DNA from: a virus
Taxonomy: Duplodnaviria; Heunggongvirae; Uroviricota; Caudoviricetes
Length of the DNA: 42,931 nt
Reading direction: 5' to 3' (one strand)
Virus record (IMG/VR): IMGVR_UViG_2541047844_000013
Location: 1-42,931 of that record
The stretch's first letter is position 1; every line of letters begins with the position of its first letter. The position numbers were made by a program, and so were the translations under genes. Below are positions 2,494-35,623 of this stretch, in pieces. The notes under the pieces are model-generated. The model made no database searches. It saw only the letters and a program-made list of their open reading frames with translations, and had not been told where the DNA came from.

Positions 2494-2793
2494 CTACGAT
2501 GCAAGAATCCATACCAATAAGCATCCGATAATTGGGAAAGAAAAATCCAACAAACTTCCCACATCCCACACGCGTGGATCAAAACCTCCCCACCACGGCA
2601 TGTTGACACGTTTCCCTTTCCCAAACTTTTCTATCCAGCGATATTCTGCCTGGGTGTGTTCACGCGCAATGAAGAACGTACAACCGGCTATCGCACCGTA
2701 AGCCCAGTTTCCGGTAAAAATACCAACCAGTACCTGAGCCGCAAAAGCGCAAAGCGAGTGAAGAAATGGAGTGACATCAATGCTCTTAATCAT
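2494..2793 (-). CDS. Small hydrophobic membrane protein, unknown function (occupies the oac/gtr lysogenic-conversion position)
   Basis: 99-aa ORF with hydrophobic N- and C-terminal segments; located between int and tailspike; no family recognised. Confidence 0.4.
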
Positions 2794-4847
2794 GAAACTT
2801 CCCCATTGGTTGAAAATATGGCTCCTCCAACTCCAAGTGTATTTCGTGTTGTGCTCAACCTAAGAGGGCTGGAGTCAGAATTAGAATATCCTGTAGCAGA
2901 AATAAAAGATCCTCCACTAATAGTCAACTGCGGAACATCGGCTATATCTGAATAAGTTCTGTCAGCAACAGTATTATTTATAGCCACATGTGATCCAAAA
3001 AAACTTCTTATTGTTTGGTTTTTAACTTTACTTCCTTCAATGGTTATCCTACTACCACAGTCAGCAATAAATCCTGAATCTGCATCCAGCGTTGCATTCA
3101 TAAAAGAAGCTTCAGATCTCTCTACATCAATCCATCTAATATCTTTTGTGGGATTTGCACCAAATACATGACAAATATTAGAGTTAAACCTTACACCATC
3201 TTGGAGGTGCATTAATTTTTTTATATCTGTACCCCATAGCCTTGGAAAATTAACAGATGCTCCTGCATGGCAATCAAATCCCAACTCAGCCCCTGAGATA
3301 TCTACAGCCTTTCCTGAAATAACAGCACCAGTGTCTGCATTAACGGCTGTTCCACAATTGCGCATATCATTACCAGCAATATCAACACAACTCGCACCAT
3401 CAATACGCACACCAAGTGCACATCCATAAAAACCTTTTTCAATATTTGGTTCAAGGACTTTACCACTTGTTTCTGCATCACTTTCTTCAACGTCATGTCG
3501 TCTTGCATCAACATATGCTGTATGAATGCAGGTTAATCCACGATATGAGCAATGTATAGTTTTATGGTCGCGTATATTAACATTTGAACCATCTCTTACA
3601 TTCCATCCTATATAACAATAGCTTGCACTTGACCCCTGAAAATCTGCTTTAACATTATAAATACAATTAACTGACGCAACCGTACTCTCTGTGCACCGTT
3701 CAAACTTGCTTACAGGCATTGATGCCTTGACATTATTTACCAGTTGCAGGGAAGAGTATCTGCTATAAGAAAAATCACATACGTAATACCCTTCTGGCAT
3801 ATATGCAGCAACACTTTCCTCATCAGGAGCACATCCGGTATGATATGCACTAATTTTTGCACCAAAGCTACCATGAATTCCAACGTAGAACTTTCGAGCA
3901 CCTGAATACGGATAGAAATTAAGTTCAGCTTTTTGAGTTACAATAAATGCACAAACATCGCTATCATCTCTATTTTCTTCAATCTGAATAGCAAATACAG
4001 GACTTTTTGCTGCATCGCAAATGTAAAATAAATATTTGTATTCGTAATACGTCCTAACAGTTTTAGTAAACAAACTGGTATCAGAGAAAACCACTGAGTC
4101 TTCTGATATTATTTTAATCCATGATAAGTCACATCCTGCTGAAATTTCTATTTGCTCATTGAGCACAAAACCGGAAAGAATTTTAATTATGCAAAAGTCA
4201 ATGCCATTTTTCCATAGTGGACGCAGTGCAACAGCCGAGTTTAGAGCATCACTAATAGATTTAAAATTACCATATTCCCCAACTGTTATTGTGAATGCAT
4301 ACCTGGAATTAAATACTGCGGCACTCTCTCCAGAGTTAATAGCTGCAGATATCATGTCATAATTTGATATAAAATCATTTGGCGTGATTATTTCTGCGTT
4401 TTTATTGTGCTGTGTTCTAAGTTTTGAATTTACATGAACACTTTTAACTGCAATACGGGAGTCGTCAACAAGTATTTCATTACCCTCTGTTGCTAACTCT
4501 TGTCTTAACTGATCCGGGTCATACTTCAGCACATTCGGAAAATTGAACTGCTGTGCACCATACGCATCATAAACAGCCATAGAATGGCCTTGCTCAGTTA
4601 CGAATTTGGCAATCTGTCCGTTATATACAGGATAACCAGCAGCGTTAATGATGATTGGTTGCGAAACAGGAACGTGAGAGCCGTCTTCGTTCTCTACATA
4701 AACCTGAATCTGGTTTTCAGGATTTACCGGGTCAGTGTCAATTTTACCGATATAAATTTTGCCATTGGCTACGGCTTTAAAAGAACGCGCCATAGTGAAG
4801 AGTTGCGAAGGCATACTCACTACAACATTGGCTGTAATGTCTGTCAT
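2790..4847 (-). CDS. Tailspike protein: P22 gp9-like N-terminal head-binding domain fused to a different receptor-binding/depolymerase domain
   Basis: First ~110 aa ([43 protein letters not shown]...VLKYDPDQ) match P22 gp9 N-terminus from memory; the remaining ~570 aa do not resemble P22 gp9. Confidence 0.88.
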
Positions 4848-22541: not shown

Positions 22542-22617
22542 TGGTGCTGGTTAACGGACTTGAACCGCTACCCATTCGCTTACAAGGCGACTGCTCTACC
22601 ATTGGAGCTAAACCAGC
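22542..22617 (-). tRNA. Phage-encoded tRNA-like gene, predicted anticodon UGU (Thr)
   Basis: Minus-strand 76-nt sequence folds by hand into a cloverleaf: acceptor GCTGGTT/AACCAGC, D-arm GCTC-CAATGGTA-GAGC, anticodon loop CTTGTAA, T-arm AGCGG-TTCAAGT-CCGTT, discriminator A plus CCA. One mismatch in the anticodon stem. Confidence 0.55.
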
Positions 22618-22622
22618 ATGTT

Positions 22623-22697
22623 TGGCGGGACAGCGTGGGCTCGAACCACGATAAGAAGGTTAACAGCCTTCCGTAATGACCTTTATACGACTGACCC
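22623..22697 (-). tRNA. Phage-encoded tRNA-like gene, predicted anticodon GUU (Asn), degenerate D-arm
   Basis: Minus-strand 75 nt: acceptor GGGTCAG/CTGTCCC (one mismatch), anticodon stem-loop GAAGG-CTGTTAA-CCTTC, T-arm CGTGG-TTCGAGC-CCACG, then G-CCA; D-loop lacks the canonical GG. Confidence 0.45.
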
Positions 22698-27174: not shown

Positions 27175-29067
27175 TTAATACTCCGTCACGTTTTCCTGTC
27201 GCCACGCCTCGTCATATTCCGATTTCGGCATATTGGCGATGTAGCTATATGGCGATCCTGATTCAAGTTGCAGGAACTGGTGCGATTGCTCGTCAAGGAA
27301 CAACGGGACGCCACCTTCCCAACCTTCGCCGTTACGTTGTTTTTCAAGCATCAAAACAGATGCCGGAGACGCCAGTACCTGTTCGTCCTTCTCTGACATC
27401 TTTTCACCACTCTGAACTCTCTGTAACGCTCTCTCGCGAGCCTTGTTACGCCAGATGATGAAAAGGTTGTCTGTCAGGTCTGTTATCGCTCCAGAGCCTT
27501 TTACGTCCATTTTCCCGGTTGGTTTTTCTTCGCTGTCTCCTTTTCGCGAGTGAGTAACGAGAATGACGTGGGAGTTTGTTTTGTTTTTGAAGTCGCAAAT
27601 CGAGTCAACAAACGCCTTCTGCCCGTTATAGTCATCGTCGCCTATGCCACATTTCATCAGGCTGTCGATGATGAATAACTGGATCCCGTATCGGCGGCGA
27701 GCGTAGTCGAATATTTCGATCAGCCTGTCGGCTTTCGCCGTTCCGGTCAGGCCAAACACCCAAAGTCTTTCGTCATAAAATTTAAATGCAGAGTCAATTT
27801 CCAGCACTGGCGGCATCTTGCAGCACGTCGCCTGACGGGTAAGGCGCTTAAGGAGAATACCAGGCTTCAGCTCAAGTGACGCGATGCACGTCTTCACACC
27901 CTGACGCATTGCCTCAAGTGCCATATGCCCGACAACCTCCGTTTTTCCGTGACCGTTCACACCATTGACCAGCGTCAACTCGGCCTCACGGAACTGGAAT
28001 TTATCTGCCAGAGATTCCCACGGTGGATTAAACAGATACTGCTGCTTGCCGTAGAAAGCGTTGATAGTGTCCTGGTAAAACTCTCGCGCGCTGTAGAGTT
28101 CTTCAGGATCGAAGTAGGATGCCGTGCCGATGTACTGCCAGATTTCATCCTCGGTAACACCGTTCATCAGGCATTCGTTGATGTCTTTGTACGGCAGAGT
28201 AACAAGACGGCAACGATGTTCACCGAGTCGGCTTGCGATTTCCCTTGCGGCCTCACGACCAACATCATCAACGTCCATCGAGATGAATATTTCCTCAAAC
28301 CTGTCGAGGTTGTGATACTCAAACTCAATCCACTGTTGCTTAGCACCTTTCCCGCCACCAAACGGCACGGATAACGCCGAGATGCCGTATTGCGCATAGC
28401 TCATACAATCAATTTCGCCTTCGCAAAGTACAACCGCCCTCACGCCAGCGTCCAGAGCCTGCCATCCGAACAGACAAGGTTCGCAATCACCTTCTGCCAT
28501 AATGACTTTCTTCCCGTCCGGGCGCTCAGTGCTGATTCGCTTGACCTGCAACAACTCACCATCGCGTTTGTACGGAAGCACCAGTGCATCAAGTTCTCGT
28601 TCTCCATTCCACACCTTGCCGCTGACAACCTCGTAGCGCTTTACGACTTCTGGCGATATGCCACGCGATTGCAGGTACTCAAGATGGGATTCTGTTCTGG
28701 TAACGTAGCGGGCGATTTTCTTGCGGTCAGGTCTGGAGAATTTCTTCTCACGTCTGGCATCGAAATGGTGATCGTCATCCTTGATACCGAGAAATGCTTT
28801 CGCTTCCTGCATAGCCTGATGCAGGTTAATTCCACGACATGCCATCCACAAATCAAGCATGTCACCGCCGTCTCCCTCAGCGAAATCAGCCCATTTTTTC
28901 TTGCCGCTAAGGTTGACCTTAAGGCTGTTTCCCTTGTCACCGTTGACGTTACCGGCAACCCACTCATGCCCCTCTTTCTTGCCGTTTGGCAACAGGTGCG
29001 GAGCCACCCTGTCAACCTGCGCCCAAAGCAGGTCGCTAAGTTCTGATGGACTCAAAGGTGCCTCCAT
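27175..29067 (-). CDS. Bifunctional DNA primase/helicase (TOPRIM plus DnaB-like helicase)
   Basis: 630 aa; Walker A GVNGHGKT in the C-terminal half; acidic TOPRIM-like segment in the middle; replaces the lambda P / P22 gene 12 function. Confidence 0.75.
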   Translation of the reverse strand: MEAPLSPSELSDLLWAQVDRVAPHLLPNGKKEGHEWVAGNVNGDKGNSLKVNLSGKKKWADFAEGDGGDMLDLWMACRGINLHQAMQEAKAFLGIKDDDHHFDARREKKFSRPDRKKIARYVTRTESHLEYLQSRGISPEVVKRYEVVSGKVWNGERELDALVLPYKRDGELLQVKRISTERPDGKKVIMAEGDCEPCLFGWQALDAGVRAVVLCEGEIDCMSYAQYGISALSVPFGGGKGAKQQWIEFEYHNLDRFEEIFISMDVDDVGREAAREIASRLGEHRCRLVTLPYKDINECLMNGVTEDEIWQYIGTASYFDPEELYSAREFYQDTINAFYGKQQYLFNPPWESLADKFQFREAELTLVNGVNGHGKTEVVGHMALEAMRQGVKTCIASLELKPGILLKRLTRQATCCKMPPVLEIDSAFKFYDERLWVFGLTGTAKADRLIEIFDYARRRYGIQLFIIDSLMKCGIGDDDYNGQKAFVDSICDFKNKTNSHVILVTHSRKGDSEEKPTGKMDVKGSGAITDLTDNLFIIWRNKARERALQRVQSGEKMSEKDEQVLASPASVLMLEKQRNGEGWEGGVPLFLDEQSHQFLQLESGSPYSYIANMPKSEYDEAWRQENVTEY

Positions 29068-29546
29068 GCGTTTCCTCTGCGGATTGTGGAAATTTGCATT
29101 TCACTCACTCCGTATTTAGTGGATAGTTCGCTTAGTTTCATACCAACAGAATTCCTGATATCAATCACATCAGTTTCAGATAGTTTTGCCCTACCATTAA
29201 AAACTCCCTTTGCGCTTTTCAGTCCGATGCTAAAAGCATGTTTTAAATTCTCTGAGCAGGTACACCATTCCAAGTTCCAAATGGCGTTATCCGATTTGTC
29301 GCCGTTGATATGATTTACTTCTGGCTTGCAATACGGATTTGGGATAAATAATTGAGCTACAAGACGATGAACTTTTAACGTCTTCTGAATCCCATCGGAA
29401 CACAAAGTGACTCTTAGATAACCCTTGTTATCCGGAGATGGATTCAAAAACCTGCCTCTTAAATGTGAATAAACACGACCGTCTTTGGTTACAGAGTATT
29501 TACCCTCATAACCAGGTATATATTCTCCAACTTCAAGGCTCATCAT
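29052..29546 (-). CDS. HNH homing-type endonuclease (NUMOD4 plus HNH_3)
   Basis: 164 aa; N-terminal GYEGKYSVTKDGRVYS (NUMOD4-like); HNH core HRLVAQLF...NHINGDKSDNAIWNLEW; stop overlaps the primase-helicase start. Confidence 0.75.
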   Translation of the reverse strand: MMSLEVGEYIPGYEGKYSVTKDGRVYSHLRGRFLNPSPDNKGYLRVTLCSDGIQKTLKVHRLVAQLFIPNPYCKPEVNHINGDKSDNAIWNLEWCTCSENLKHAFSIGLKSAKGVFNGRAKLSETDVIDIRNSVGMKLSELSTKYGVSEMQISTIRRGNAWRHL

Positions 29547-29653: not shown

Positions 29654-30514
29654 TCACCTGTCGAAAAACACGTAGCCAGTTTTCGATACGGTGATTGCGG
29701 ATGATGGTTTGGATTGTGGTTGAATGGTTTCTGGCTTTTCGTCGTTCCAGCGTTGACCGTTCAGGTAGCTCGATGGTAACAACCTGTCGAATCCGAACTG
29801 CTTACCATTCCTGCATGCGATGTCTTCTGCCAACATCGTGGCAAACTCGCTTGCCGTACCCCTGGTAGTTTTACGCCATTCCCTGAACTGTGTTCTAAAT
29901 GCCGAAGCTGCGTTTTTTTTCCCGGCTTTCCGCATGCCTGCACACCAGAATATTTCCTCGAATGCCTTGTCGGTTTCTTCGTGACGGTCAGGTGATTTTT
30001 CACACTCCGTCCGAACACTTTCGGACATAGTGTTTTTATTATTTCTTTTTTCTTTTGTAATAGTTTCTTTTGTGTGTCCCTGTTTTGGTGACAGCGCTGT
30101 CACCGTTTTGGTGACACTTTTTGTCACCAATGCAGTGACATTATCACCAGAGTAGTGACACCCTTCGATTTGCCATTCCTCGATGTTCTTGTTAGGCCCG
30201 ATTTGCTGGCCTTCGCGAAGGATAACCTTCATCGCGATAAGCTCATTCTTGGCCTTGTTTACCTTCTGTCTTGGCAGCCTGGTAATTTGAGCTAACTGAC
30301 TATCAGAGATGCGATCCATCTTTTTACCGTAGCCGTATGTTTTACGGCATATGGCGTGGGCAACCTTGCTCTGATTTTTCGTTAAATCTGCGCCGATAAG
30401 CTCTTCATACAGGGCATTTGCAAGACGGGTATAACCATCTTCAACTTCTGCCACACGACGCTCCACAGGCCGTTGTGAAGGCCTTAAATGTGTTACGGTT
30501 GCAAGATTACTCAT
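29654..30514 (-). CDS. Replication initiator, lambda O-like N-terminal origin-binding domain
   Basis: N-terminus ([56 protein letters not shown]...GPNKNIEEW) parallels lambda O; iterons lie inside the gene. Confidence 0.8.
30083..30170. repeat. Replication origin iterons (GGTGACA / TGTCACC repeats) inside the O-like gene, next to an AT-rich tract at 30031-30070
   Basis: Repeats such as TGGTGACAGCGCTGTCACC, TTGGTGACACTTTTTGTCACCAA, CAGTGACATTATCACCAGAGTAGTGACACC; arrangement as in lambda ori. Confidence 0.7.
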
Positions 30515-30653
30515 GACCTTTCTCCTTCTGCATCAGCTTCACTTTTTCCAACTCAGCCCGGAATCGACCAGGCTGCTTGAAGCTGGACAGGAAGCGATCA
30601 CGTAGTATGTGTTTGTGAATTTTGTCCTGGTAAGGACTGAGTTGTTTTGTCAT
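30507..30653 (-). CDS. Possible small ORF (48 aa) between cII and O; may instead be the oop promoter region
   Basis: Hand translation [48 protein letters not shown]; overlaps the O start; no family recognised. Confidence 0.2.
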
Positions 30654-30687
30654 AATTACTCCCGTGGATTGATCCAGTCTTTCTACA

Positions 30688-30966
30688 TTAGGCCTCGAAG
30701 AATTCGCCGTTCTTCGGGGCTTTTTCTTTTGTCAGCATTCTGGCTACTTGCTTAGCCAGTTCCGCCAACTCCTCGTCTTCAACACCCCATTCAAGAACAG
30801 CCAGAAGCATTCCCATTTTGGGGATGAAGCTGTCTTTCCATCGCGAAATTTGCGATTCATTAACCCCTAACGCGTCGGCAACCTTTCGCTGACCACGTAC
30901 AGCAATTCGATTCAGGATGTTGCTTGTAATTGCATTCGCTTTCTTGCGAGTACTTGTAAGTTGCAT
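30688..30966 (-). CDS. cII: Transcriptional activator CII
   Basis: 92 aa; ...[58 protein letters not shown]... parallels lambda CII. Confidence 0.85.
30692..30730 (+). ncRNA. oop-like antisense RNA 3' end and terminator, overlapping the 3' end of cII on the opposite strand
   Basis: Hairpin GCCTCGAAG-(11-nt loop)-CTTCGGGGC followed by TTTTTCTTTT on the plus strand; same position relative to cII and O as lambda oop. The 5' end and promoter are not determined. Confidence 0.5.
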
Positions 30967-31023
30967 ATGTAAGTATTTCCTTAACTAATAAGAAGTTATG
31001 CGCATCAACTTATGCGCGTTGTA

Positions 31024-31067
31024 TTCCCGCATTTCGGCGGGAATGAGGACCATGACTGTTAAAGAGC
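31024..31067 (-). promoter_or_regulatory. nutR (boxA CGCUCUUUAACA, boxB stem-loop UCCCGC-CGAAAU-GCGGGA)
   Basis: Read on the minus strand between cro and cII; boxA matches the lambdoid consensus; the same boxB hairpin recurs in nutL. Confidence 0.65.
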
Positions 31068-31074
31068 GGTGTTA

Positions 31075-31275
31075 CTATTTGTTTTTCTTGTTGCTTGGGA
31101 AAGGACGAACTTCCTCTCCAATCACACTGCCATCAGGCTTTACCGTAACCATGATGTTACGGCCTGCCAGAATGGCCTTGCTGATAGCGCACTGGATTAC
31201 ACCAAAGTCACTGGCTGCTTTAGCCTGTCCATGGATTTTGGCGTAATCGGCAAGTGTCATTCGAATCATATGCAC
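31075..31275 (-). CDS. cro: Cro repressor
   Basis: [62 protein letters not shown] parallels lambda Cro. Confidence 0.85.
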
Positions 31276-31299
31276 TCTCCGTTATTAACCATGAACAAA

Positions 31300-31365
31300 G
31301 AATACTACAGGTATTCAAAGCAATCAATACTCAGGGTATTTTTAGTTTAAGTACCTTAGCTATTA
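31300..31365. promoter_or_regulatory. OR operator region (three sites of form AATAC-N5-GTATT) with divergent pR and pRM
   Basis: GAATACtacagGTATTC (31300-31316), AATACtcaggGTATT (31326-31340) and weaker AGTACcttagCTATT (31350-31364); centre-to-centre spacing 24-25 bp; between cro and cI. Confidence 0.6.
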
Positions 31366-31375
31366 GAATTAAGCT

Positions 31376-32092
31376 ATGGAAAATAAAAAATCACTGACGA
31401 CAGAACAGCTGGAAGACGCTAAGCGGCTTAAGGCTTTGTATGAGTCAAAAAAGAAAGAATTGGGAATAACCCAATACTCAATCGCTGATGAACTGGGTAT
31501 CACCCAAGGAGCGGTAGGGCATTATCTTAATGGCAGAAATGCGCTAAACGTTGAGGTTGCATCTGGTTTTGCACGATTGTTGCAAGTCTCAATTGCTGAT
31601 TTTAGCCAGTCAATTGCTGCCAAGGTTGCAGAACAGGCAGAAAGCCTTAAGAGCGATGCCAACGTAAGGTATGCAGGGGAATACAGAGCAGGAAAGAGGT
31701 ATCCGGTGTTAAGCAGTATCCAGGCTGGCTCGTGGTGTGAAGCATGCGAACCATACACCATTAAAGACATAGATGTTTGGCTTGAGTCTGACGCGCATAT
31801 TCAAGGTAATGCGTTCTGGCTTAAAGTGGAAGGTGATTCAATGACGGCACCGGTTGGGTTAAGCATTCCAGAGGGAACATTCGTTCTTTTCGATACCGGA
31901 AGGGAGGCGATCAACGGCAGCTTGGTCATAGCAAAACTTTCTGACTCTAACGAAGCAACATTCAAGAAGCTGATAATCGACGGCGGAAATAAATACCTCA
32001 AGGGACTTAATCCTGCATGGCCTCTCGTGCCAATCAATGGAAACTGCAAGATTATAGGCGTTGCAATTGAGACAAAACTCAGACTGGTTTGA
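31376..32092 (+). CDS. cI: CI repressor (HTH plus LexA-like S24 autopeptidase domain)
   Basis: 238 aa; N-terminus (TTEQLEDAKRLKALYESKKKELGITQYSIADELGITQGAVGHYLNGRNALN) parallels lambda CI; C-terminal FWLKVEGDSMTAP... cleavage-domain pattern. Confidence 0.88.
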   Translation: MENKKSLTTEQLEDAKRLKALYESKKKELGITQYSIADELGITQGAVGHYLNGRNALNVEVASGFARLLQVSIADFSQSIAAKVAEQAESLKSDANVRYAGEYRAGKRYPVLSSIQAGSWCEACEPYTIKDIDVWLESDAHIQGNAFWLKVEGDSMTAPVGLSIPEGTFVLFDTGREAINGSLVIAKLSDSNEATFKKLIIDGGNKYLKGLNPAWPLVPINGNCKIIGVAIETKLRLV

Positions 32093-32110
32093 TCACGCAA
32101 GGGGGCGCTT

Positions 32111-32479
32111 ATGGTTGGAACCGCTATAGCAAGCTTTTTGGGGATGTTGGCAATCTCAACAATTTACGGCTTAGCGCATGCTTTTATTGCGAAATCTCTA
32201 TCAGAAAAAATAAGCCAGGCTTGGGCGCATAGATCAGCTCGTTTCATGATTCTAGTGATCATAGCAATACAAGGGATATCTGCATTTATCCTCTATGGAT
32301 CAAGCTTATACCTATTGTATCAAGGCGCGACATTTACGCCTTACACCAGTGATTACGGAACCCTATACGATGGTAGTGAAGACATCTCTATGGCTTGGAT
32401 CGTCTTTGGTTTATCTATGGCCGTGTCTGTTGTAGCAGACATCATTAAGGTAATTCTCGTCTTAACCTTCGCTGACTAA
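32111..32479 (+). CDS. Membrane protein co-oriented with and immediately downstream of cI (rex-position accessory gene), unknown function
   Basis: 122 aa, about 4 predicted TM helices; starts 19 nt after the cI stop; no family recognised. Confidence 0.5.
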   Translation: MVGTAIASFLGMLAISTIYGLAHAFIAKSLSEKISQAWAHRSARFMILVIIAIQGISAFILYGSSLYLLYQGATFTPYTSDYGTLYDGSEDISMAWIVFGLSMAVSVVADIIKVILVLTFAD

Positions 32480-32610
32480 CCCATAATCCCGGCAGCAATA
32501 GCTATCGGGATCCACTTCACATATCCCGCATAAAAAGCACTGAACAAGCAGACACCGAAAAAAATAAATATCCTTTGTATTCATTTATTTATCATTATTT
32601 CATCAAAAAT

Positions 32611-32650
32611 AAATACCTTGGGTATTTACACAATAAAATACCTACAGTAT
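32611..32650. promoter_or_regulatory. OL operator region (two AATAC-N5-GTATT sites) with pL
   Basis: AATACcttggGTATT (32611-32625) and AATACctacaGTATT (32636-32650); same half-sites as OR. Confidence 0.55.
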
Positions 32651-32698
32651 TCTTTAGCCATCAGCAGGACGCTGGAAGCCAAACGGAAAAGATTGGCA

Positions 32699-32739
32699 GG
32701 CTCTTTAACATTGATGGGATTGTCCCGCCGAAATGCGGG
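32699..32739 (+). promoter_or_regulatory. nutL (boxA GCUCUUUAACA, boxB UCCCGC-CGAAAU-GCGGGA)
   Basis: boxA at 32699-32709 and boxB at 32722-32739, upstream of N. Confidence 0.65.
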
Positions 32740-32847
32740 AACCAAAGAGTAGTTGGCTTTGGGGTGGCGTGAAGTGCAGCTGCACGACGGCAACCGGAAG
32801 ATAAGCACCCGGCGCGTCACCGCCAAAGTCAATCATCGGAGGTCAAC

Positions 32848-33153
32848 ATGACAGTAGTCATTACATATCTGGCTGACGATAACGCCAGAAATCGCCGCAG
32901 AGCACGCAGACAGGCTCAACGTGAGCAGGCAATGCAAGAACAGCGACTGGCGCGAAAAATTGCGCTAAAGCTCTCTGGTTGCGTCAGAGCAGACAAAGCA
33001 GCATCACTCGGAAGCCTTCTCTGCAAGAAGGCAGATGAAGTCGAGCGTAAACAGAACCGTATTTACTACCGCAAGCCACGCTGTGAAATGGGTGTGACTT
33101 GCTCAGGCCGCCAGAAGCAACGCGGAAAATCAATTCCAGCTTATTACGATTGA
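32848..33153 (+). CDS. N: Antitermination protein N
   Basis: 101 aa; arginine-rich motif NARNRRRARRQAQREQ near the N-terminus; first gene after nutL; GGAGG Shine-Dalgarno. Confidence 0.75.
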   Translation: MTVVITYLADDNARNRRRARRQAQREQAMQEQRLARKIALKLSGCVRADKAASLGSLLCKKADEVERKQNRIYYRKPRCEMGVTCSGRQKQRGKSIPAYYD

Positions 33154-33161
33154 GGTGAGCC

Positions 33162-33299
33162 ATGCTCAAGAAAGTCAAACGCCGACTTTACAAAGAAGGT
33201 AGATATTCATGCCAGTTGCCAAAATGCGACACGACAAAATGGAGTGTCGATGATTGGTGTAACTGGATAGATAGATACGGAACTTGGTGGGATAAATAA
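33162..33299 (+). CDS. Small Cys/Trp-rich hypothetical protein (45 aa)
   Basis: Hand translation MLKKVKRRLYKEGRYSCQLPKCDTTKWSVDDWCNWIDRYGTWWDK; GAGGTGAG Shine-Dalgarno 5 nt upstream. Confidence 0.4.
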   Translation: MLKKVKRRLYKEGRYSCQLPKCDTTKWSVDDWCNWIDRYGTWWDK

Positions 33300-33423
33300 C
33301 AGGTAACTTAAGCGGATTTATTTTCGCAGCAAACCACTTATTTGAGGTGAGATATGGAAGAAGAATTTGAAGAGTTCGAAGAGCATCCCCAGGATGTGAT
33401 GGAACAATACCAGGACTATCCTT

Positions 33424-34654: not shown

Positions 34655-35623
34655 ATGAGTGAAGTAACAGATTTAGTTGTTATTGAAAAAGCAAATGCAA
34701 TGACTGTATTTCAGTCTGCCGACCAGATTGAAGAAATCCTTCAAAAGGTTGAACGTGAAGTTATGTCCTTTGTGCCTGATATCACAACGGCAAAGGGCAG
34801 AAAGGAGATCGCTTCTCTGGCGTATAAAGTTGCGCAGACGAAAACATATCTCGATGGTCTTGGCAAAGACCTTGTTGCTGAACTGAAGGAAATTCCAAAG
34901 CTAATTGATGCCAACCGCAAGACAGTGCGTGATCGCCTTGATGAACTGAAAGTCAAGGCACGCCAGCCTCTTACTGATTATGAGGAGGAGCAGTCACGGA
35001 TTAAAGCCGAAGAAGAAGCTAAGGCAGCAGCTGAAGCTCTCGCAAAGCAAATTGAGTCTGACCATGAAATAGCTATTTTGATGGATCGCGAATTTGACCG
35101 CAAAAGAGAAGAGGTAAGACTCAAAGCGGAGCAGGAAAAGCGAGAGCATGAAGAACGCTTAAAAAGAGAAGCTGAAGAGAAAGCCAGAGCTGAAGCCGAA
35201 GCAAAGGCAAAAGCCGAAATTGAAGCAGCAGCAAGGCGAGAAGCAGAAGCTAAGGCCGCAGCGGAACGTGCAGAGCGTGAACGCATTGAAGCCGAGCAAC
35301 GAGCACAGCGCGAAGCAAAAGAGGCAGCAGAACGAGCTGAAAGAGAAAAGCAGGCGGCAATTGAAGCAGAACGCCGAAAAGCACAGGAGGAGGCTGAACG
35401 AATCCGGCGCGAGGCTGAAGCAAAAGAGCAAGCCAGAATAGCAGAAGAAAAAAGAATCAAGGACGAAGAAGAGCGTAGAGCAAAGGATAAAGCTCACCGG
35501 AAAGAAGTAAATAACAAAATACTTGCTGACCTTATCAAGGTTGGCGCATCAGAAGATGTTGCTAAAAATATCATAACAGCCATCGTAAAAGGCGAAGTAT
35601 TCGCAACAAAAATAACCTACTAA
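34655..35623 (+). CDS. Coiled-coil protein with a long Ala/Glu/Lys/Arg-rich low-complexity central region
   Basis: 322 aa; AGGAGG Shine-Dalgarno; about 150 aa of EAKA/AERAERE-type repeats between globular N- and C-terminal segments. Confidence 0.6.
   Translation: MSEVTDLVVIEKANAMTVFQSADQIEEILQKVEREVMSFVPDITTAKGRKEIASLAYKVAQTKTYLDGLGKDLVAELKEIPKLIDANRKTVRDRLDELKVKARQPLTDYEEEQSRIKAEEEAKAAAEALAKQIESDHEIAILMDREFDRKREEVRLKAEQEKREHEERLKREAEEKARAEAEAKAKAEIEAAARREAEAKAAAERAERERIEAEQRAQREAKEAAERAEREKQAAIEAERRKAQEEAERIRREAEAKEQARIAEEKRIKDEEERRAKDKAHRKEVNNKILADLIKVGASEDVAKNIITAIVKGEVFATKITY

Follow-up and report, generated by a model that had tools for sequence, protein, structure and literature searches.

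hkaS, a cI-linked gene for a predicted three-helix inner-membrane protein in HK620-type prophages, as a tentative candidate for superinfection exclusion

The window analyzed here is the whole 42,931-nucleotide (nt) stretch at positions 1 to 42,931 of IMG/VR record IMGVR_UViG_2541047844_000013, a P22-like prophage, and the subject of the analysis is an open reading frame (ORF) on its plus strand at 32111–32479 that begins with ATG and comprises 122 codons for a protein of 122 amino acids (aa). By sequence comparison this ORF is the known gene hkaS of coliphage HK620, annotated in 2001, and is not new. The HK620 record (AF335538) gives the hkaS product (AAK28867) as 'unknown' and annotates around the gene the pRM-side operators OR1-3, pRE, a 'tIMM' after hkaS, OL1-3, pL, and nutL. 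The HkaS proteins of the window and of HK620 are 96.7% identical with four conservative residue differences, the immunity regions are 98% identical in DNA, and the match to PHROG 6534, a family of unknown function, extends over residues 1–122 of 122 (E 1.1e-78). A megablast search with 31300–33200 found 98–99% identity across cI, hkaS, and N in phages HK620, HK630, HK140, mEpX2, HF4s, HZ41, vB_EcoP-611R6, phi296/phi367, and two Stx2c-converting phages.

Upstream of hkaS and on the same strand lies cI (31376–32092), whose 238-aa LexA-like product contains HTH_3 and Peptidase_S24 domains (Pfam E 5e-24 and 8e-10, respectively), falls in PHROG 4 (transcriptional repressor), and is 99.6% identical to the HK620 repressor. 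The spacer between the two genes is 18 nt long (32093–32110, plus strand) and contains a Shine-Dalgarno motif, AAGGGGG, at 32099–32105, 5 nt before the hkaS ATG; a gap of 17–20 nt with an AAGG(A/G) motif is found in all relatives, down to 55–60% protein identity. Downstream, 87 nt separate the end of hkaS from the block of oL operators and pL (32567–32653, plus strand), which comprises operators at 32567–32581 (one mismatch), 32612–32626, and 32637–32651 (both exact) and the promoter pL (TTTACA-17-TATTCT, 32625–32653), is invariant across all relatives, and forms the downstream boundary of the immunity operon. Beyond it lies an N-like antiterminator gene (32848–33153, plus strand; PHROG 271, E 8e-35), the first gene of the pL operon and outside the cro-cI-hkaS module. 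hkaS is the sole gene between cI and oL/pL, a position that corresponds to the rexA/rexB slot of lambda. A reading of this DNA from the sequence alone had placed the ORF at the rex position, 19 nt after the cI stop on the same strand and without a RexA-like partner, and on all these points it stands: the ATG begins at the 19th base after the stop at 32092, the ORF lies between cI and oL/pL with the antiterminator gene beyond, and only one supported ORF occurs between cI and oL, in the window as in all relatives. A Cys-rich 40-aa ORF on the minus strand (32462–32584) was considered as a partner of hkaS and rejected; it is probably spurious, since conservation of this DNA does not extend to the diverged Salmonella and Hafnia-type relatives. 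This ORF runs from the oL3 region, overlaps the 3' end of hkaS, and is annotated in HF4s and probably in phi296/phi367.

Operon anatomy and precedent give good support to our inference that hkaS is co-transcribed with cI from pRM/pRE. Operators OR1–OR3, of the type AATAC-N5-GTATT, occupy 31301–31364 between cI and the divergent cro (31075–31275, minus strand), where HK620 annotates OR1-3; a search with this pattern gives exact matches at 31301, 31326, 32612, and 32637, one match with a single mismatch (32567), and one with two mismatches (31350). A putative pRM-like −10 hexamer, TAGAAT, can be read at 31364–31369, only 6 nt ahead of the cI ATG, which would imply a leaderless or near-leaderless cI messenger RNA (mRNA). 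The predicted pRE region (30943–30983, plus strand), with a CII-binding repeat TTGC-N6-TTGT at 30944–30957, reads toward cI and hkaS; the functions of promoter and cII-protein binding site are predicted by mapping the HK620 annotation onto 98%-identical window sequence. A scan of 30900–33000 for sigma-70-like promoters returned only pL, which HK620 also annotates together with OL1-3, and no promoter between cI and hkaS. A plus-strand scan from cI to N for intrinsic terminators returned none, including for the cI-hkaS transcript, and an Rfam scan of 30400–33400 returned nothing meaningful. The lambda genes rexAB and the 434 gene hex, which occupy the same slot, are known to be expressed from pRM mRNA (PMC3564112; PMC8585504).

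Directly 3' of the hkaS stop, RNA folding gives a hairpin of 7+3 base pairs with the stem ATCCCGG...CGGGAT (ATCCCGGCAGCAATAGCTATCGGGAT, 32486–32511, plus strand) that is not followed by a T-run and was not called by the terminator scan. Its stem is kept in the Hafnia-type relatives L008 and L010, and another short hairpin occurs instead in the Salmonella relatives L003 and L004; it is possibly an mRNA 3' stabilizer or processing site. The 'tIMM' of the HK620 record falls on an A/T-rich repeat, and this repeat overlaps the apparently genuine OL3. The best candidate for a third oL operator, AATATCCTTTGTATT at 32567–32581 (within 32561–32604), differs from AATAC-N5-GTATT at one position and is invariant in all relatives, whereas the OL3 annotated in HK620, which maps to about 32588–32604, bears no resemblance to an operator.

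Four transmembrane (TM) helices had been predicted for the protein in the sequence-only reading, and this count has to be revised to three. Kyte-Doolittle analysis identifies three hydrophobic segments at approximately residues 3–27, 45–70, and 94–119, and an AlphaFold2 model built from a 6-sequence alignment (predicted local distance difference test (pLDDT) score 91.6, predicted template modeling (pTM) score 0.78) contains three long helices at residues 2–29, 41–74, and 89–121, in addition to an 8-residue connecting helix at 31–38 and a β-hairpin at 78–86. The loop of residues 28–44 is basic, with a net charge of +3, and that of residues 71–93 is acidic and Tyr-rich, with a net charge of −4. 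Because of these loop charges the positive-inside rule predicts an N-out, loop 1 in, loop 2 out, C-in topology, and the model has almost no cytoplasmic mass. In five lineages at 52–82% identity TM3 and the C-terminus are the most conserved part of the protein, with 52% of positions invariant, including D110, K113, and the terminal VLTFAD. Further invariant features are Q54 in TM2, ARF.IL at the start of TM2, and YLLY.G.T...YG..Y.G in the predicted periplasmic loop.

hkaS is a real gene under purifying selection and not a chance ORF. All 81 copies from 80 IMG/VR contigs and one Buttiauxella genome are intact at 122 codons, and they represent 40 alleles at the DNA level and 25 variants at the protein level. 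Of the codons that vary among close alleles, 18 carry synonymous changes only and 19 carry conservative replacements (I/V/L/M, A/S, S/T). The ratio of nonsynonymous to synonymous substitution rates (dN/dS) for hkaS is 0.15 between the window and the Hafnia-type relative L008 and 0.20 between L003 and L008; for cI it is 0.03 in the window–L008 pair. Phage HF4s has a frameshifted hkaS and is yet a plaque-forming isolate: one A is lost from an A6 run (window 32205–32210, codons 32–34; L002 about 2900–2910) and a coding sequence of only 77 aa is annotated, reflecting either natural inactivation or a sequencing error. An upstream ORF starting with TTG (32089–32232) was considered and rejected, as the database proteins that begin at TTG 32089 (P0005, P0008, and P0009) are frameshift fusions.

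The gene order with cro leftward and cI, hkaS, oL/pL, and N rightward is kept in relatives from Salmonella, Hafnia-type metagenomes, and Buttiauxella at 55–82% identity. Conserved synteny, which had been proposed as a check, was thus found, with hkaS lying between a LexA-like cI and oL/pL in HK620, in the Salmonella, Hafnia-type, and Buttiauxella relatives, and in those from IMG/VR. Identities to the window for cro, cI, hkaS, and N are 84%, 86%, 60%, and 31%, respectively, in the Salmonella relative (L003) and 81%, 96%, 82%, and 24% in the Hafnia-type relative (L008); the Buttiauxella relative (L013) has 60% identity for cI and 55% for hkaS, with no match for cro or N. N is unrelated (22–31% identity) in relatives that retain cI and hkaS, and across 80 viral contigs cII and N are mosaic, whereas cro-cI-hkaS stays constant. 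Among 5426 complete E. coli genomes hkaS occurs in 146 (∼2.7%) at 147 places, always chromosomal, and the counts for cI are equal (146 genomes, 147 places). The three genes cro, cI, and hkaS diverge together as one module, and hkaS is strictly linked to cro-cI. Some carriers of the module (L015 at about 3720–3925, L018, and L024; HK140 and vB_EcoP-611R6) have ∼200 nt inserted, at a position matching ∼32833 of the window, between the nutL region and the ribosome-binding site of N. The insert includes a GC-rich hairpin (CCCCTCAGTTCGAGGGG) and shows no convincing ORF.

The slot itself is variable. In Serratia phage OS31, where cI is related (∼70% nt identity) and the oL operators are the same, ∼100 nt stand in place of hkaS, the slot of P22 is empty (38 nt), phages 434 and Sf6 carry the unrelated gene hex there next to a cI whose C-terminal domain is ∼73% DNA-identical to that of the window cI, and Epsilon34 carries two orphan genes. 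Since the related immunity region of OS31 lacks the gene, hkaS is accessory and not part of the switch proper, and it is dispensable for immunity. By sequence comparison hkaS is among several accessory genes that occupy this known variable slot as alternatives; rexAB and bstA are housed in the cI-N interval, a recognized mosaic hotspot (Owen et al. 2021; PMC8585504). Of the features by which a 'moron' is recognized, absence at the same junction in related genomes is observed (OS31 and P22, with hex in 434 and Sf6), whereas a promoter and terminator of its own and a deviant base composition are not: the GC fraction of hkaS is 0.42, little different from 0.45 for cI and 0.467 for the window.

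Clustered at 90% identity, the relatives of HkaS returned by a word-indexed search form 11 clusters, which come from E. coli, Hafnia paralvei, Salmonella Mbandaka, and metagenomes. When 1.84 billion representatives at 50% identity were searched exhaustively with a profile, one real cluster was returned, that of hkaS itself; two further matches were rejected, a 44-aa fragment and a repetitive 5949-aa protein aligned on the Tyr/Gly-rich loop, the latter being judged compositional. As judged from these searches the hkaS family is a narrow orphan of enterobacterial lambdoid prophages. No match to HkaS was found in NCBIfam, a sequence profile search of the PDB returned nothing, and Pfam gave only sub-threshold matches attributable to TM bias, to Cation_ATPase_C (19 bits against a cutoff of 27 bits) and TssN. 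Because HkaS matches no known function, its role can be argued only from context and architecture.

On that basis the likeliest of the readings considered, put forward tentatively and by analogy, is that HkaS is an envelope protein, made in the lysogen, that would bar superinfecting phages at genome entry. Defense is a reasonable, unproven reading, drawn from position and membrane character alone. Within the HK620-type immunity operon hkaS would be a 'moron'-type accessory gene, and HkaS would be made continuously in the lysogen because the gene would share its pRM/pRE transcript with cI. The protein would insert into the inner membrane as three helices, with its N-terminus and conserved Tyr-rich hairpin in the periplasm and its short basic loop and invariant VLTFAD end in the cytoplasm, and from there it might guard the lysogen against heteroimmune phages by disturbing either the DNA-entry conduit or an inner-membrane host factor that incoming phages need. 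P22 SieA, HK97 gp15, and T4 Imm are small inner-membrane proteins that act at genome entry. The three TM helices, the lack of a cytoplasmic domain, and the conserved periplasmic hairpin of the HkaS model appear to fit the small superinfection exclusion (Sie) proteins better than the sensor-containing abortive infection (Abi) systems.

The best functional analogy for HkaS as a stand-alone membrane protein is P22 SieA, likewise a small inner-membrane protein with three predicted TM helices, those of HkaS being predicted only by the model and by hydropathy. SieA is a ∼160-aa protein of the inner membrane with three predicted TM domains that is expressed from the prophage, blocks DNA delivery on its own, and targets the ejection-protein conduit (PMC10883804). 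The HK97 gp15, Tuc2009, and TP-J34 proteins are further stand-alone inner-membrane proteins that exclude phages by blocking genome delivery (as cited in PMC10883804). SieA differs from HkaS in length and in sequence, with an hhalign probability of 0.25% (only SieA of the P22 type was compared), and sieA differs from hkaS in location, as it adjoins the ejection-protein and immI genes, has its own promoter, and lies outside the cI operon. SieB of lambda and P22 shows no sequence homology to HkaS (hhalign probability 0.04%). Like hkaS, bstA of the Salmonella prophage BTP1 lies downstream of cI, and this defense gene presumably shares the repressor promoter (PMC8585504). BstA differs in that it localizes to where phage DNA is replicated, is paired with a cognate DNA element, anti-BstA, and is not described as a membrane protein (PMC8585504).

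Several observations weigh against exclusion at genome entry. The periplasmic loop and TM3 of HkaS are conserved rather than fast-evolving, which is unlike a simple arms race with phage ejection proteins; a conserved host target or an oligomeric pore would fit equally well, and direct recognition of fast-evolving phage proteins explains the conservation of the loop less well than a conserved host partner or an oligomer interface does. The module is carried by differing virion types (P22-like HK620, HK630, HK140, mEpX2, and Stx2c phages) and therefore suggests no specific target class. PADLOC contains no family matching HkaS at E ≤ 10, PHROGs match it only to PHROG 6534 and to no Sie or RexB family, hhalign comparisons with RexB, SieA, and SieB each give a probability below 1%, fold searches with the HkaS model were uninformative, and the literature searched holds no functional data or phenotype for hkaS. 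The slot, moreover, also houses functions other than defense, such as 434 Hex, a stabilizer of repressor against RecA (PMC3564112). A more far-reaching form of the defense hypothesis is doubtful: that HkaS founds a new family of stand-alone three-helix inner-membrane defense proteins, wired into the repressor operon and lacking a cytoplasmic sensor, that both detect the membrane-penetrating apparatus of a phage and halt infection, whether by obstructing the conduit or through collapse of the membrane potential, with the invariant intramembrane Asp110/Lys113 pair and the periplasmic Tyr-rich hairpin as sensing and gating elements.

A different idea is that HkaS is instead a single-component Abi effector, whose oligomers would form a latent RexB-like or holin-like pore that depolarizes the membrane once an infecting phage disturbs it and kills or arrests the infected lysogen before progeny are made. 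We consider such a pore rather unlikely. In its favor, hkaS lies in the slot and operon of lambda rexAB, and the invariant polar and charged residues within the TM helices (Q54, S106, D110, and K113) are what a pore or oligomer interface would need. A pore of this kind would, however, have to operate without a RexA-like or other cytoplasmic sensor partner and with almost no cytoplasmic mass of its own. HkaS and RexB are alike as membrane proteins of the immunity region encoded downstream of cI and upstream of oL/pL, and RexB is expressed in the lysogen, but RexB is a protein of 144 aa with four predicted TM helices, compared with 122 aa and three for HkaS, and the hhalign probability for the pair is 0.3%; that HkaS is unrelated to Rex, as first proposed, thus withstands a check for remote homology to RexB and SieB. 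The three-TM N-out/C-in layout is formally that of a class I holin such as lambda S or P22 gp13, and the likeness ends there: hhalign against P22 gp13 gives a probability of 0.3%, Pfam and PHROGs place HkaS in no holin family, hkaS lies in the immunity operon rather than a lysis cassette, and its product ends in VLTFAD without a basic tail.

Linkage and conservation also need to be considered from the side of the prophage and its host. RexA and RexB reportedly tune lysogen stability or induction, and HkaS could likewise modulate the prophage life cycle or host physiology, through lysogen stability or induction or through a host membrane process. That hkaS co-diverges with cro-cI and, in E. coli, occurs in strict linkage with that cI would suit such a modulator, as would the conserved periplasmic loop and TM3 if they face a conserved host partner; the same linkage is nevertheless expected from the 18-nt spacer, and the related immunity system of OS31 functions without hkaS. 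An integral membrane protein with a cytoplasmic loop of ∼17 residues is unlikely to regulate RecA or cI directly, and overall we regard a modulating role as unlikely. The precedent for it is hex of phage 434, a lysogen stabilizer that acts in a RecA-dependent manner. Like hkaS, hex of 434 and Sf6 is a single gene immediately after a cI with a related C-terminal domain and before oL, and it is made from pRM mRNA. HkaS and Hex are not homologous (hhalign probability 0.05% for 434 Hex), and Hex, as read from its sequence, has only an N-terminal hydrophobic segment rather than three TM helices. Hex is reported to inhibit RecA-stimulated repressor cleavage rather than to act in exclusion (PMC3564112). 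The product of 434 hex (L095, 2166–2570) starts with a hydrophobic, signal-peptide-like segment (MIRIAALLSILLTTSANSEC), which is odd for a RecA-linked role, and the hex record itself flags uncertainty about the start codon. Size and architecture alone would admit a function unrelated to phage, namely lysogenic conversion in which HkaS acts in the inner membrane to neutralize pore-forming bacteriocins or contact-dependent toxins: the immunity proteins to E1-type pore-forming colicins are inner-membrane proteins of ∼100–115 aa with three TM helices, and HkaS has 122 aa, three helices, and a conserved periplasmic loop. Pfam and NCBIfam, however, return no immunity family for colicins, microcins, or contact-dependent inhibition (CDI) at E ≤ 1–10, there is no toxin gene nearby, and we know of no precedent for a toxin immunity gene in the cI-pL slot, so that toxin immunity appears improbable. 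Finally, the occasional frameshifted copies (the 1-nt deletion in HF4s and the three fusion proteins, which join another frame) and the absence of the gene from OS31 might be taken to mean that hkaS is a functionless passenger kept only through linkage to cI. Of the readings considered this is the most improbable, as dN/dS is 0.15–0.20 at a synonymous divergence of ∼0.66 or more, every one of the 81 loci retains the exact 122-codon length, substitutions are conservative, and motifs are invariant across all five lineages. The probability that is left belongs to some other function.

Should hkaS protect lysogens, a minimal one-gene membrane determinant would join the repressor-linked lambdoid functions rexAB, nun, bstA, and hex, and it would help to account for phage resistance among the complete E. 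coli genomes with this immunity type (∼2.7%), including those with Stx2c-converting phages and O111:H8 strains. Were hkaS a defense determinant, its sequence family would be new and its kind, repressor-linked prophage exclusion or Abi, already known. Conceptually this is not novel, given that the cI-N interval is an established hotspot for accessory and defense genes and that hkaS has been in GenBank since 2001, and the gain would be incremental unless the mechanism proves unusual.

Elsewhere in the window, an integrase gene (1209–2402) lies beside a transfer RNA (tRNA) gene, tRNA-Arg(CCU), at 1009–1083, and is followed by a gene for a tailspike with a P22 head-binding domain (2790–4847). Genes for tRNA-Thr(TGT) and tRNA-Asn(GTT) lie back to back within the prophage on the minus strand (22542–22697). 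On the same strand cII (30688–30966) and O (29654–30514) lie beyond cro, and a gene for an HNH endonuclease of 164 aa with a NUMOD4 motif (29052–29546, minus strand; Pfam E 2e-10 and 2e-9) sits between the O-like gene and that for a 630-aa Toprim/DnaB-like primase-helicase (27175–29067), a placement typical of homing endonucleases. On the plus strand, 34655–35623 encodes a protein of 322 aa that has a long, extremely charged central region rich in E, A, K, and R and no Pfam match; in HF4s the corresponding protein carries the annotation 'antitoxin protein ... similar to phage phi80 Agt; Gam antitoxin protein'.

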